Assembly (NCBI GenBank): GCA_041671765.1
Contig: JBAZAX010000006.1
Location: forward strand, 2,231-66,230
Source: Candidatus Babeliales bacterium
Lineage (GTDB): Bacteria; Babelota; Babeliae; Babelales; RVW-14
Direction: 5' to 3'
DNA length: 64,000 bases
The translations under genes were made by a program, and so were the position numbers. Below, piece by piece: positions 5,294-54,886 of this stretch. The notes beneath the pieces were generated by a model. The model worked only from the letters and a program-made list of their open reading frames with translations. It did not search any database and was not told the DNA's origin. Every line of letters starts with the position of its first letter. Position 1 is the stretch's first letter.

Positions 5294-6352
5294 CTAATCC
5301 AAAGCATCAGGCCAGAAAAAAAGAACTCCACAATCTAGTTGTTCTTTATAAATCAGATCATCAAGCATATTTCTTGTATTTCCTGGAATTTTTCTTATCA
5401 AAGGCCTACCCTGACATTCTCTGAAAAAATCATCACAGAAAAACCAAGAATTGTTATAGTTTACATAAGCTGCACAATGTCCACAAAATGCGCTGGAGAC
5501 TGTTTCTGCTGGATTCAAACCAACCCCTAATTTCGTTGAGCATTTAACAGCTTTTAGTTTATATGTTTTTTCTGTGCCGTAAGTAAAAGAGATTTGAGTG
5601 AAAACAGATTCAAGGCTAGATATAATTTTATAAAAAATATCAGGGTTATACATTGGCTCTGATATGGGTTTTACTATAAAAAGATCCAACGATGGGATAA
5701 AGAGCAAAAAGAAATTTAATCCATAATCATTAAATCCCTGCACGCACAATCTCGAATCCCCATAAATATATTGAACCCCATTTTTCATAGGCAATCGCAT
5801 AATTTTTTTTAAAGAGAGAAGAGTGTTTTGTTCGTGGGAATAAAAGAAAGCTTTAAGTTCTGAGCCTGAAATTTCTTTTAATAAAAGGTATTCTGATAGC
5901 AAGGGAATGCCGCCAAAACCGCAATCTCCGATTTCTTGGCGGTACATACTATTCATGTACTTAAAAATCTCCCAACAGGGGGAATTTGAACAATTAATTA
6001 TCTGATCGCGTAGTTCTGAAATTCTTGGATCAGCAAGTTTTTTTGATGGCTTATTTAAAAAGGACCAAAGTAATTCTTCATCACAAGAAAATCTTAAAAG
6101 ATTTTCTCTTAATATTTTAAGTTGAACTTCTAACCCATTTTTAGGTTCTTTTATTTGATCTATGAATAAACAAAATTTGGGACATTGTAACAAACATTGG
6201 AAAATTGCATTACAAAAACAAATTCCCCTTTCTACGTCATTATAAAATGGGATAGGAAAAGTTGGCTGACCAGGAGAAACCATTGCAAAAATTGGCAGCC
6301 CAAGGTTTAGGTTAATGTTTATAAACAGTAGTAATAAAATTTTTAGATGCAT
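5294..6352 (-). CDS. Eukaryote-like ubiquitin-specific protease (USP/UCH, peptidase C19-like) with N-terminal leader
   Basis: Cys box ERGICFCNAIFQCLLQCPKF, with the predicted catalytic Cys45 at nt 6218-6220. His box CGHCAAYVNYNNSWFFCDDFF near the C-terminus. Leader MHLKILLLLFININLNLGLPIFA followed by Met24. Confidence 0.75.
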   Translation of the reverse strand: MHLKILLLLFININLNLGLPIFAMVSPGQPTFPIPFYNDVERGICFCNAIFQCLLQCPKFCLFIDQIKEPKNGLEVQLKILRENLLRFSCDEELLWSFLNKPSKKLADPRISELRDQIINCSNSPCWEIFKYMNSMYRQEIGDCGFGGIPLLSEYLLLKEISGSELKAFFYSHEQNTLLSLKKIMRLPMKNGVQYIYGDSRLCVQGFNDYGLNFFLLFIPSLDLFIVKPISEPMYNPDIFYKIISSLESVFTQISFTYGTEKTYKLKAVKCSTKLGVGLNPAETVSSAFCGHCAAYVNYNNSWFFCDDFFRECQGRPLIRKIPGNTRNMLDDLIYKEQLDCGVLFFWPDALD

Positions 6353-7032
6353 AAAATAAATGCCCAGGTTAACAAACCTGTAAAAAAAACGGAATCGAAA
6401 CGATCTAAAAATCCTCCATGTCCCGGCAAAACATTACCAACATCTTTTAACCCGTTATGACGCTTTAATATGGAAATTAGCATACCGCCAAGAAACGCTA
6501 CTATTGTGAAAATTAATGAAATTAAAAGAATTACGATAACTGTTAAGATTGTAACTTTACAAAAATAAGAATAGATTGGTTCAATTTTGATATTTGGTAA
6601 AAGAAAAAAATTTAAAACTACCACAGCCACAAAGCTACCAAAAAATCCTTCCCAAGATTTGCCTGGACTAATTTTGGGATAAATTTTATGAACGCCCCAT
6701 ATTTTCCCAACAAAATAGCCAAATGTATCGGCAGTCCATGCAACCAAGAATGGATACATAGGTATAGCTAAATCGACCTGATGAAATCGATAGTTAAGAA
6801 AAATTAAACTTAGCACCGGAAAAATTGGATAAAAAACGGTTGCAATCCATGAGTATGGCGAATCAAAATCAACAAGTTTTGGCCATTCAAAAAAAAGAAC
6901 CAAAACAAGAATTATAAACATCAATAATGAGAACATTGCAACCGAATGCAAATATGCTCCACCAAAACAAAAAATTATAGCTAACGATGTTAGCAAGCGT
7001 TTAAAAAATTCAGCACTAAAAATAAAAATCAT
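6343..7032 (-). CDS. cdsA: Phosphatidate cytidylyltransferase
   Basis: ADTFGYFVGKIWGVHKIYPKISPGKSWEG and GHGGFLDRFDS signature motifs. Polytopic membrane protein. Confidence 0.9.
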   Translation of the reverse strand: MIFIFSAEFFKRLLTSLAIIFCFGGAYLHSVAMFSLLMFIILVLVLFFEWPKLVDFDSPYSWIATVFYPIFPVLSLIFLNYRFHQVDLAIPMYPFLVAWTADTFGYFVGKIWGVHKIYPKISPGKSWEGFFGSFVAVVVLNFFLLPNIKIEPIYSYFCKVTILTVIVILLISLIFTIVAFLGGMLISILKRHNGLKDVGNVLPGHGGFLDRFDSVFFTGLLTWAFILCI

Positions 7033-7820
7033 TTCTTATAAACCACCTTTCGTAAACAAAGACCACAAGCATCAGCCTTAAGCAACGTTTGCCTTGGATC
7101 TGGAGAGTCTAACAAAGTCTTTAGATAGTTTACAGATAAATTTTCGCGACGTGCAACATCTAGTGCATATCCAACCATGCGACGAATTTGAAAACGAAGA
7201 AATCCCGGTCCTTTTACAGAGACTCTGAGTATTCCGAATCGATCGAACCGTTCTAATTTTATACTGTCAATTGTACGTACAGTGCTTTTACCAAGTACGC
7301 CATCAGATGCTTTATCCTCTACATCAATTTTACAAAAAGACCCAAAATCATGTTCCCCTGTATACAAATTTAAGGCATTTTCAAATTTACCTAAATCAAC
7401 CTGATCCATAAATTTGTACAACCAACCGTAACGTGCTACAAATGGTAATGGCCGCTTTAAAAAGATATGATAATAATACGTTTTTTGTGCAACATTAAAA
7501 CACGCATGAAAATCATCCGGCACTTCTTGTAGATCGCGAATTAATATACTTTTGGGTAGCATATTGTTCCAAGCTGATTTAATGATATTCAAATCTAGAT
7601 CAATCTCTGACCTAAACATTGCCACCTGCTCCAAAGCATGCACCCCAGAATCTGTACGTGATGCGCCAATCAAATTTATTTGATGTCCAAAGACTTTATG
7701 AAAAGTTTGTTCTAGAGTAGATGAAATTGAAACGGCTTCCGGCTGTTTTTGCCAGCCAAAAAAATCAGTTCCATCGTAAGCAATAACTGCTTTTATCTTT
7801 TGACTTTTCAATTTTTGCAT
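7029..7820 (-). CDS. truA: tRNA pseudouridine(38-40) synthase
   Basis: IAYDGTDFFGWQKQPE and GASRTDSGVHALEQV (catalytic Asp motif). 4-nt overlap with cdsA. Confidence 0.9.
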   Translation of the reverse strand: MQKLKSQKIKAVIAYDGTDFFGWQKQPEAVSISSTLEQTFHKVFGHQINLIGASRTDSGVHALEQVAMFRSEIDLDLNIIKSAWNNMLPKSILIRDLQEVPDDFHACFNVAQKTYYYHIFLKRPLPFVARYGWLYKFMDQVDLGKFENALNLYTGEHDFGSFCKIDVEDKASDGVLGKSTVRTIDSIKLERFDRFGILRVSVKGPGFLRFQIRRMVGYALDVARRENLSVNYLKTLLDSPDPRQTLLKADACGLCLRKVVYKK

Positions 7821-7898
7821 ATTTTCCCCAAAATTTGAGCTCTATTTTGCAAAACAGAAATTTTAAACGCTAAGATTATTATACCCATAAAAATTAAG

Positions 7899-53252: not shown

Positions 53253-53273
53253 AAATAAAAAAGCTTACTCATA

Positions 53274-54041
53274 ATGGAAAATATAAGAAAATTACTTTTA
53301 ACAGGTTTTATTGTGGGCTGTGCTACTGCTAATATACTTGCAATGGAAGGGCCTGAAACGCAAGACACACAAGAACTTAGATCAACTGGCATTGATAGCT
53401 TATTAAATATATCAGATGATCTAACAGATAAAATATTAGAAAAAATTTTGGCACAGTATATCGAACCGGATATAAATGCATTAACTCTTAGCAAACTCGA
53501 AATAGCAATCAATAAGCTAAAAGAATTGCGCCTAATAAATAAAAGACTAGCAAAGTTTTTAACATATACAGAAGTCATAGATATTTTAAGGGCTGCAAAT
53601 ATAGGTTTATATGCTAATCAAGTCAACCCTGATACGGGCGAAGCATTGTTACACATGGCTATAAGAACAGGAAGTATTGCCTTAGCCAGAATATTAATTA
53701 AATCAGGAGTTGATGTTAATGTGGCACTTATAACACCAAGAAGTCCAAAATTCACTAAGCGCTTCCCTATCGGATCAACACCCCTACATATTGCTGTAAA
53801 AATGGGATATGCAAATATTGTGTCGCTATTAATACAACACGGCGCTGATATTATGGCTAAAACGGTCAGCCATAACCCACGAAACAACAACATAACCCCA
53901 TTGGATATTGCAAGATCATTTCAACGACAAGAAATCATTGAAATACTTGAGGCTGCCTATCAAACAAGCGGATTAGCTGTTCCTCATATTGCTGTTGCCA
54001 TATATCCAAATGTAAGGTCCCTAGATTTTTCAAATATGTAA
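53274..54041 (+). CDS. F-box-like/ankyrin-repeat protein 2 (leader-bearing)
   Basis: Paralog of 52404..53252: ISDDLTDKILEKILAQYIE ... LRLINKRLAKFL, then GEALLHMAIRTGSIALARILIKSGVDVNV and GSTPLHIAVKMGYANIVSLLIQHGADIMA. Leader ends ANILA followed by Met24. Confidence 0.75.
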   Translation: MENIRKLLLTGFIVGCATANILAMEGPETQDTQELRSTGIDSLLNISDDLTDKILEKILAQYIEPDINALTLSKLEIAINKLKELRLINKRLAKFLTYTEVIDILRAANIGLYANQVNPDTGEALLHMAIRTGSIALARILIKSGVDVNVALITPRSPKFTKRFPIGSTPLHIAVKMGYANIVSLLIQHGADIMAKTVSHNPRNNNITPLDIARSFQRQEIIEILEAAYQTSGLAVPHIAVAIYPNVRSLDFSNM

Positions 54042-54076
54042 AATAAAACAAAATAATTAGAATTAAGGATTGTGTT

Positions 54077-54886
54077 ATGAAAAACATAAAAAAATTACTC
54101 TTAACAGGATTTATCATAGCGCTTCCTACTGCAAATTTGCTTGCAATGGAAGATATCGCACAGGCTCCTGAATCCGCGGCCGCTATCGCTGGAACAACAG
54201 TCGCTACTGCAGAACAACCGCTGCCATTTGTTGCAGAAAATGTAGATTTTTCATATCTACCTGATTTAGCGTTGGAAAATGTTTTAGCTCGATATATTGA
54301 AAGCGATTTAGCAAACGCAAGTAATCAAGCCAAACTTCTTGAAGAAGTTGAGCTTGCAATCAACAGACTAAAAAACCTAAGATTAATTAATAAAAGATTC
54401 GCAAGTTTTTTAACATATCAAACAATTATATCTATCTTAATAAATGCAAATATAGTTATGCTCGCCAACAGAATTGACCTTGATAATGGTGAAACTTTGC
54501 TACACAGAGCCATACGTACTGAACGAATTGTGTTATCAAAAATTTTAATTGATGCAGGGGTAGATATTAATATGCCGCTTGTAAAGCCAAGAAATCCGAT
54601 CATGACTAAACGTTTTTCGATTGGAACAACGCCTTTACATACTGCCGCAATGCTGGAATGCCCTAATCTTGTAAATTTATTAATACAGCATGGTGCTGAT
54701 ATCACCGCAAAAACGACTAGCGACATCCCAAACAAAAATAATCGCACAGCATTGGATTATGCAAGAGCTAGAAACCACGCCAACATTATTGCAATGCTTG
54801 AAACTGCCTTCCAAGCAAGAGGCTTACCTATCCCTACAGTAGAAGTACCAATATTACCTCCTGCAGTAACTTATATAGAATTTTAA
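54077..54886 (+). CDS. F-box-like/ankyrin-repeat protein 3 (leader-bearing)
   Basis: LPDLALENVLARYIE ... LRLINKRFASFL, then GETLLHRAIRTERIVLSKILIDAGVDINM and GTTPLHTAAMLECPNLVNLLIQHGADITA. Leader ends ANLLA followed by Met24. Confidence 0.75.
   Translation: MKNIKKLLLTGFIIALPTANLLAMEDIAQAPESAAAIAGTTVATAEQPLPFVAENVDFSYLPDLALENVLARYIESDLANASNQAKLLEEVELAINRLKNLRLINKRFASFLTYQTIISILINANIVMLANRIDLDNGETLLHRAIRTERIVLSKILIDAGVDINMPLVKPRNPIMTKRFSIGTTPLHTAAMLECPNLVNLLIQHGADITAKTTSDIPNKNNRTALDYARARNHANIIAMLETAFQARGLPIPTVEVPILPPAVTYIEF

Follow-up and report, generated by a model that had tools for sequence, protein, structure and literature searches.

Ubiquitin-system-like proteins with Sec-type leaders, encoded among housekeeping genes of a Babeliales bacterium, are probable effectors against a protist host

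To our knowledge, every cultured member of the Dependentiae is an intracellular parasite of protists. For Babela massiliensis, Pagnier et al. (2015; PMC4378268) listed one F-box and one RING protein along with three C19 hydrolases that are secreted and carry signal peptides. A signal peptide was present on 79 of 126 ankyrin proteins, and a type II secretion system (T2SS), the sole secretion system of this bacterium, was proposed as the export route (PMC4378268). The TM6 core genome includes a T2SS with two gspD copies (PMC4776705). In Chromulinavorax, a signal peptide was found on 44% of coding sequences and on 78% of ankyrin proteins, and outer-membrane vesicles (OMVs) were observed during infection (PMC6561590). 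TssM of Burkholderia pseudomallei/mallei is a USP-type deubiquitinase (DUB) secreted by the T2SS, and has been called the only characterized bacterial enzyme of this type (Hermanns et al. 2023; PMC10719079). The present report concerns a window of 64,000 nt (the whole stretch of DNA analyzed; contig JBAZAX010000006.1, positions 2,231 to 66,230) from a Candidatus Babeliales bacterium. An initial annotation had placed seven ubiquitin-related open reading frames (ORFs) within positions 5294-54886 of the window, and all seven were present at their given positions: two genes of USP type, two RING genes and three tandem ankyrin genes. Its remark that USP-fold DUBs are uncommon among characterized bacterial effectors is in line with the singular status of TssM (PMC10719079). 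Our analysis indicates that these genes probably encode eukaryote-derived ubiquitin-system modules, scattered among Babeliales housekeeping genes and exported to act on the protist host.

The window comes from a member of the Babeliales (Dependentiae/TM6) and corresponds in essence to 'TM6 bacterium GW2011_GWF2', a genome from the Rifle groundwater aquifer. A block of lon, RING, AAA, OPT, LexA-like and three ankyrin genes was found with equal gene lengths on LBSD01000005.1 (GCA_000991765.1). The third ankyrin gene is partial there; its product (P0064), for which NCBI gives the source name 'candidate division TM6 bacterium GW2011_GWF…', is identical to the window copy over the aligned region. 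Synteny was also observed with other Babeliales metagenome-assembled genomes (MAGs). GC content was ~35% and uniform along the whole length, coding density was high, and tRNA and Rfam scans of the window were both without matches. Housekeeping genes were present across the whole window (a mevalonate-pathway kinase and decarboxylase, cdsA, truA, rpoD, dnaG, lgt, murG, rarA, murJ, lolD, lon and typA), with many domain-less ORFs in between. Because rpoD, dnaG, lgt, murG, lon, murJ and lolD are interspersed and GC content is uniform, a single locus or genomic island for the seven genes was rejected. The context of the first USP-type gene, which is syntenic in one relative, also counts against an island.

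USP2 (33256-35370, minus strand; 704 aa) consists of a leader (aa 1-29, …NLYA↓MRD; the arrow indicates where cleavage is predicted), a canonical USP domain (aa 71-385, nt 34216-35160), a coiled-coil linker and a second USP copy. Pfam UCH (PF00443) matched it in two stretches with E = 1.8e-48, and scored 165.8 bits (cut-off 23.9) over profile positions 1-254 of 254. A PDB sequence search retrieved 47 USP chains at E <= 1e-3, including USP47, 36, 2, 8, 21 and 15 at 4e-14 to 1e-11. The catalytic motifs NICYINAVVQCL (Cys81), NHYISIV (His333), YNDSSV (Asn350) and QDADEF were all found, and the finger region contains one CxxC pair. Beyond Babeliales relatives, the nearest homologues were eukaryotic USP2/8/15-like proteins. 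The identical protein occurs on five independent contigs, and the NCBI entry at 100% identity is assigned to 'Candidatus Babeliales bacterium'. USP2 is a textbook USP with an intact Cys81/His333/Asn350 triad, and is predicted to be active. The second USP copy (aa ~515-704, nt 33259-33828) ends at an 'LKRF'-type motif; because Pro522 replaces the catalytic Cys and there is no His box, this copy is inactive.

Directly downstream of USP2, after a 73-nt gap and a frame change, is a leaderless pentapeptide-repeat ORF (31890-33182, minus strand; 430 aa; Pentapeptide 2.6e-25). In a related Babeliales genome (L006, 10001-13591), USP, pseudo-USP and pentapeptide repeats form a single 1196-aa protein (P0003). 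A deletion of ~115 codons together with the frame change split this fusion into the 704-aa USP2 and the 430-aa ORF in the present genome, and independent assemblies confirm the split. A second pentapeptide-repeat protein assigned by Pfam (30893-31879, minus strand; 328 aa; leader …NLFA↓YDQQ) is a conserved neighbor of USP2, in the same order in L006.

The other USP-type protein, here termed USP1 (5294-6352, minus strand; 352 aa; leader aa 1-23, …PIFA↓MVSP), is much more divergent. Its Cys box reads CFCNAIFQCL, with Cys45, and its His box GHCAAYV…WFFCDDF, with His292 and Asp307/308. Cys45, Asn48, Gln52, Cys53, His292 and Asp307/308 are invariant in seven family sequences down to 42% identity. 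A homologue search returned seven close relatives only, all without a Pfam domain, and the family profile matched 10 proteins in total among 1.84e9 representatives. The weakest four of these (P0073-P0076; E = 1e-11 to 4e-4) are short and leader-bearing; three scored above the Pfam UCH cut-off (29.8-36.7 bits), and P0073 (23.0) fell just under 23.9. The AlphaFold2 model of USP1 had a pLDDT of 64.5. When this model was compared with PDB by Foldseek, the only matches at E < 1e-3 were a PDB protein named USP1 (1.8e-5, probability 1.00) and USP14 (6.6e-4, 0.98), with TM scores of 0.31-0.36. In sequence searches of PDB, phmmer with USP1 found no USP (top match UFM1, E = 0.11), and the family profile found USP30 only, at E = 1.4. 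The likeness to UFM1 (aa 236-293; GVGLNPAETV…F.GH vs GIGINPAQTA…FLKH) was judged a chance match because this stretch is not conserved in the USP1 family. On the basis of the conserved motifs, the Foldseek matches and the transitive profile link, we accept USP1 as a very divergent USP-like peptidase in a tiny family. The claim of two USP-type proteins in the window is secure by Pfam for the 704-aa protein, and holds for the 352-aa protein only through these indirect routes.

A profile scan of genome contigs with the USP1 family gave a single locus, labelled 'uncultured Pseudomonadota'. This contig (CAZMQG010000001.1; L005, 153 kb) encodes a 68%-identical orthologue of USP1. In the 21 kb examined, it also contains relatives of a leader-bearing methyltransferase of the window and of 312-aa and 182-aa leader ORFs. 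The label 'uncultured Pseudomonadota' is probably wrong.

Both RING proteins have a leader of 23 residues. Ank-RING-HC (24765-25805, minus strand; 346 aa; leader …DLFA↓MQE) contains ankyrin repeats at aa ~155-255, with Pfam ankyrin families at 6e-17 to 3e-7, and a RING at aa 289-330 (nt 24816-24941). The RING shows the full C3HC4 zinc-ligand pattern with canonical spacing, the sole match to this regular expression among 216 stop-to-stop segments of the window, and Arg331 stands at the linchpin position right after it. PDB matches were the RING domains of CBL-B (9.8e-7), RNF4, CBL and TRIM32, in a range of 1e-6 to 3e-4. In Pfam, RING_XB3-XBAT31 was the best RING model, with an E-value, like that of zf-C3HC4_3, of ~1.7e-5. 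The RING-H2 protein (46944-47516, plus strand; 190 aa; leader …TAFG↓MEK) has a complete C3H2C3 regular-expression match at aa 41-81 (nt 47064-47186), scored 34.8 bits with zf-RING_2 (cut-off 27.3), and matched RNF4 in PDB at 3.5e-11 and AMFR, synoviolin and RNF38 at ~1e-7. Arg82 is at its linchpin position, and its C-terminal ~100 aa are without a recognizable domain. The gene is also present on a TM6 GW2011_GWF2 contig (L009). In both RINGs, Ile stands behind the first Cys pair and Arg behind the last Cys, which suggests that they may bind E2 enzymes and transfer ubiquitin. Both also match solved eukaryotic E3 RING domains. Thus, the RING-H2 finger proposed initially was confirmed by profile, pattern and structure-database match, whereas the proposed RING-HC finger was upheld by its ligand pattern and by the CBL-B/RNF4 matches at ~1e-6 and not by the Pfam cut-offs.

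The three ankyrin paralogues (Fb1-Fb3; 52404-53252, 53274-54041 and 54077-54886, plus strand) are arranged in tandem and share 44-50% identity. All of them combine a leader with a helical N-domain and 3-4 ankyrin repeats, with Ank families up to 5e-20. The N-domains contain the motifs LPDxxLxxIL (e.g., LPDELILNIL) and …LRLI[NS]K…, ~17-22 aa apart. Pfam F-box models (PF00646/PF12937) gave E = 0.088 with no stretches in one paralogue and nothing in the other two, and the isolated F-box-like region scored 18.2 bits (Pfam F-box cut-off 20.5). The family profile retrieved no F-box chain from PDB, and none of the five relatives found by homologue search had an F-box. A control F-box profile (A6) recovered AnkB among 49 PDB chains, almost all of which are F-box proteins by name; hhalign of the native paralogues against it gave 39% probability over 16 columns. 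In hand-made constructs lacking the 17-22-aa insert, F-box scores were 22.5 bits (cut-off 20.5), 17.7 bits and none, and hhalign with the constructed sequence rose to 85% over 24 columns. These scores provide a lead, not membership. The conserved helix-3 Trp of the F-box is Phe or Leu in the paralogues, and residues 1-116 of the AlphaFold2 N-domain had pLDDT < 50, too low for the model to be of use there. Of the original "F-box-like/Ank" description of these three proteins, only the ankyrin part is solid.

The middle paralogue (53274-54041) has a lipobox-like IVG↓C at residues 13-16 (Cys16), after a short h-region. An I-[VI]-G-C of this type is also present in its closest homologues, P0065 and P0066; both flanking paralogues are without the Cys. 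The middle paralogue may be a lipoprotein.

Leaders were called by heuristic scans for a basic n-region, a hydrophobic h-region of 7-20 residues and small residues at -1/-3. All seven ubiquitin-related proteins had a basic n-region, an uncharged hydrophobic core and Ala or Gly at -1, with predicted sites IFA↓M, LYA↓M, LFA↓M, AFG↓M, ISA↓A, ILA↓M and LLA↓M. The leaders were conserved in paralogues and in orthologues at 40-83% identity. The initial annotation was thus correct in assigning Sec-type leaders to all seven. It also implied that they were special to the ubiquitin-related proteins, which did not hold: the same heuristic called a leader in 21 of 47 window ORFs (~45%), a fraction that matches the 44% of the Chromulinavorax proteome (PMC6561590). 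Because 21 of 47 window ORFs carry one, the leader is a proteome-wide trait.

The presence of lgt, lolD, murG and murJ in the window indicates a diderm-type envelope; therefore, Sec alone would leave the proteins in the periplasm. From the domain content and the leader features we infer a route, a localization and a set of activities as follows. The leader would act as a cleavable Sec signal peptide that brings the protein to the periplasm, from which it would exit through the conserved T2SS of the phylum or in OMVs. The literature points to this second step, and the route of "Sec plus a second step, or OMVs" suggested earlier for the window agrees with published proposals (PMC4378268, PMC4776705, PMC6561590). 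USP2, with Cys81/His333/Asn350, would then strip ubiquitin from host or pathogen-associated targets, and USP1 would probably do likewise on ubiquitin or a ubiquitin-like modifier. As E3 ligases, the two RING proteins would act with host E2~ubiquitin, one of them binding its substrate through its ankyrin repeats, and the three tandem ankyrin proteins would bind host proteins. The view of the seven as host-directed effectors is supported by eukaryote-like modules, the F-box apart, in a bacterium known only as an intracellular parasite of protists.

Several points weigh against this reading. A T2SS does not cross the host vacuolar membrane, and delivery depends on the intracellular niche. Proteins with zinc fingers and active-site cysteines must transit the periplasm. 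The gene and Pfam survey of the window revealed no T2SS genes, and the heuristic used for the leaders is not a dedicated predictor. Pfam RING models on Ank-RING-HC were all below their cut-offs (zf-C3HC4_3, 24.9 vs 27; zf-C3HC4, 18.4 vs 21; RING_XB3-XBAT31, 25.2 vs 50). On USP1, Pfam UCH reached 14.6 bits, under the cut-off of 23.9, and matched the Cys box only; the USP1 model is of mediocre confidence (pLDDT 64.5, TM ~0.33). The second USP copy of USP2 is truncated and catalytically dead. F-box membership of the three ankyrin paralogues is not established.

The main rival explanation is that the proteins are exported but retained at the bacterial surface or in the periplasm (as signal-anchor, lipoprotein or outer-membrane proteins), where they de-ubiquitinate or modify the bacterium's own surface or the vacuole. 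We consider this unlikely. Leaders alone cannot tell release from anchoring, and lgt and lolD are both present in the window. A lipobox-like I-[VI]-G-C, such as a lipoprotein would have, is shared by the middle ankyrin paralogue and the two homologues closest to it; the lipobox Cys is, however, missing in the other six of the seven. For TssM itself, the Ig-like domain is believed to place the protein close to the bacterial surface (PMC10719079). On the other hand, in the six proteins without the Cys, the h-region (~11-19 residues) runs into small residues at -1/-3, like that of cleaved signal peptides. Neither a further hydrophobic segment nor any known anchor motif was seen, and RING E3 activity requires access to host E2 enzymes. 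We favor release toward the host over retention.

Among 52 predicted leaders drawn from six Dependentiae loci, 11 had Met directly behind the predicted cleavage site, vs a background of 1.8% (binomial p = 2e-9; the site heuristic is blind to the +1 residue, and this small sample contains orthologous as well as paralogous genes). Met was the commonest residue at this position, was often followed by E, D or Q, and was enriched in eukaryote-like proteins. In the window, such leaders are those at 5294-6352, 24765-25805, 27350-30877, 33256-35370 and 35588-36250 on the minus strand and at 46944-47516, 53274-54041 and 54077-54886 on the plus strand, with junctions …FA↓M, …YA↓M, …LA↓M, …FG↓M and …NG↓M; others were found in L006, L007, L008 and L010. 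By manual assignment, Met was at +1 in six of the seven ubiquitin-related proteins vs two of 14 other leader proteins of the window (Fisher p ~0.003; the six include two paralogues). The distant USP-like proteins P0072 (LFA↓M) and P0075 (SFA↓M) have this junction as well. Most simply, acquired cytosolic genes would have gained their leaders upstream of what was once the start codon. If phylum-wide, this signature could help to show how these parasites convert acquired cytosolic genes into secreted effectors.

A bolder proposal is that the '…[FYL]-A↓M-[EDQ]' junction is functional rather than fossil, and that the 352-aa USP1 defines a small Dependentiae-specific USP-like clade with altered, possibly non-ubiquitin, specificity. 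The junction may then mark effectors that were captured as complete cytosolic genes, the leader being placed upstream of the original start, or the Met-acidic N-terminus may be native-looking and N-degron-resistant after processing in the host cytosol. We regard this proposal as doubtful, somewhat more so than retention at the surface.

The in-frame Met exactly at the predicted +1 position in six of seven proteins also raises the possibility that the leaders are artefacts of choosing the longest ORF, that translation truly starts at the Met behind the hydrophobic stretch, and that the proteins are cytoplasmic. The evidence makes this very unlikely. Besides the conservation of the leader protein sequence in orthologues, the n-regions are basic and Ala or Gly is at -1. 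Shine-Dalgarno (SD)-like motifs were found before the leader starts of Ank-RING-HC, RING-H2, Fb1 and Fb3, and none before the internal Met. The NCBI gene model of the identical USP2 retains the leader (700/704 aa). In addition, enzymes of the ubiquitin system would have no substrate in the bacterial cytoplasm. Because the leaders are conserved, have SD-like motifs upstream of several of their starts and, for USP2, are retained in the NCBI model, they are genuine coding sequence, and the internal Met was rejected as an alternative start.

Ubiquitin-like conjugation systems exist in bacteria, and the statement that bacteria lack ubiquitin is not absolute. One could accordingly assign the genes to an anti-phage or ubiquitin-like conjugation system of bacteria (Bil, CBASS Cap2/Cap3 or the like) that acts on bacterial or phage targets, a reading to which we give very little credence. 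No E1, E2 or ubiquitin-like-protein gene adjoins any of the seven, their domains match eukaryotic USP and RING families, and all seven carry export signals. PADLOC and NCBIfam searches revealed no anti-phage or bacterial ubiquitin-like system: there was no PADLOC match for the USPs or RING-H2, and the matches obtained were driven by ankyrin repeats and were far below threshold, on which ground a defense-system reading was rejected. Eukaryotic contamination or a chimeric assembly, which the eukaryotic best non-bacterial matches of USP2 beyond its close relatives might suggest, is almost certainly excluded by the uniform GC content of ~35%, the intronless genes with bacterial housekeeping genes on both sides, and the same arrangement in independent assemblies from different samples and in related MAGs.

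Several other genes of the window were recorded. A leaderless Fic-domain protein (86 bits) is encoded at 15584-16336 on the plus strand, and another Fic gene lies near the USP fusion gene in L006. An S-adenosylmethionine-dependent methyltransferase with a leader (…TTCMA↓SPV; 14603-15412, minus strand) adjoins lgt in three genomes (the other two at L005 482-1294 and L007 349-1161); an exported methyltransferase is unusual. A 1175-aa leader protein (27350-30877, minus strand) carries at its C-terminus a 'Cytotoxic' domain like that of colicin E3 (PF09000, 26.9 bits; PADLOC NsnC 6.9e-14); in L006, a homologue of 1336 aa is found at the equivalent position. The leaderless 181-aa ORF downstream of it (26788-27333, minus strand), which has no known domain, may be an immunity protein. 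A 1268-aa leader protein (38048-41854, minus strand) has a Gln-rich (QAQLQ…) region and at least five internal repeats of ~130 residues (…AEMTRVNNIL…YDSQLSILPNLVTS…); a search of Pfam with it gave a DUF5848 match only. Phosphomevalonate-kinase-like and diphosphomevalonate-decarboxylase genes (2576-4694, minus strand) both have TTG starts and overlap by 44 nt. This pair is also present in the related MAG L007, where Pfam assigns GHMP-kinase and MVD-like domains, and points to a mevalonate pathway in a reduced parasite.

Among known systems, Candidatus Amoebophilus asiaticus and the Chlamydiae show that F-box, RING/U-box and USP-type domains have accumulated in intracellular bacteria of protists. 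These belong to other phyla with different or unknown secretion routes, and we know of no report of Sec leaders as a rule in them. Ank-RING-HC has the same domain order as the eukaryotic XB3/XBAT Ank-RING E3s, i.e., ankyrin repeats followed by a C-terminal RING-HC. In the RINGs of the window, as in these eukaryotic E3s and in those of the RING-H2 type (RNF4, RNF38, AMFR, synoviolin), the zinc ligands are complete and the last Cys is followed by Arg; the window proteins differ from eukaryotic E3s in that they are encoded by bacterial genes with a signal peptide and have no other eukaryotic accessory domains.

In Legionella pneumophila AnkB (PDB 5K35), from a bacterium that grows in amoebae, an N-terminal F-box-type motif precedes a few ankyrin repeats, a layout like that of the ankyrin trio. 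AnkB was found by a generic F-box profile (E = 1.8e-4), whereas the window paralogues were not. It has no known Sec leader, is a substrate of the Dot/Icm type IV secretion system (T4SS) and carries a C-terminal CaaX box. The window paralogues, in contrast, end in …DFTL, …FSNM and …YIEF, without a CaaX box.

TssM resembles the window USPs in being a bacterial USP-class protein with a Cys/His/Asp triad, and in using the kind of route proposed here for them, a Sec-dependent type II route rather than a type III, IV or VI secretion system. It has no Fingers subdomain, has an N-terminal Ig-like domain and is biochemically characterized, whereas the window proteins are known from sequence; USP2 matches Pfam UCH across all 254 positions of the model, the finger region and its CxxC pair among them. 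TssM is the closest characterized effector and a functional precedent for a T2SS-secreted DUB of USP type. Because it is the only bacterial USP-type DUB characterized so far, the window USPs are useful targets. Candidates for biochemistry are the full-length 'fingered' bacterial USP, the very divergent USP-like family and the two RING domains.

Babela shares with the window the phylum, the order, a RING finger, secreted C19 (USP) proteins, leader-bearing ankyrin proteins and a dispersed arrangement of the genes. The F-box protein of Babela has as its possible counterpart here the ankyrin proteins in which an F-box is not established, and the AAA-Ulp1 family of Babela was not seen in the window. 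The window represents a different lineage (a groundwater MAG) with more copies within 50 kb, namely two RING, two USP-type and three tandem ankyrin genes. One of its USPs falls in a very divergent small family, and a tandem USP/pseudo-USP is linked to pentapeptide repeats. The novelty that was implied for this arrangement does not stand, since the Babela set was described in 2015 (PMC4378268). The finding is a Babela-type system in another Babeliales lineage, with more copies and a concept that is not new. The case for Dependentiae attacking the ubiquitin system of the host by means of Sec-exported enzymes of eukaryotic origin gains another lineage.

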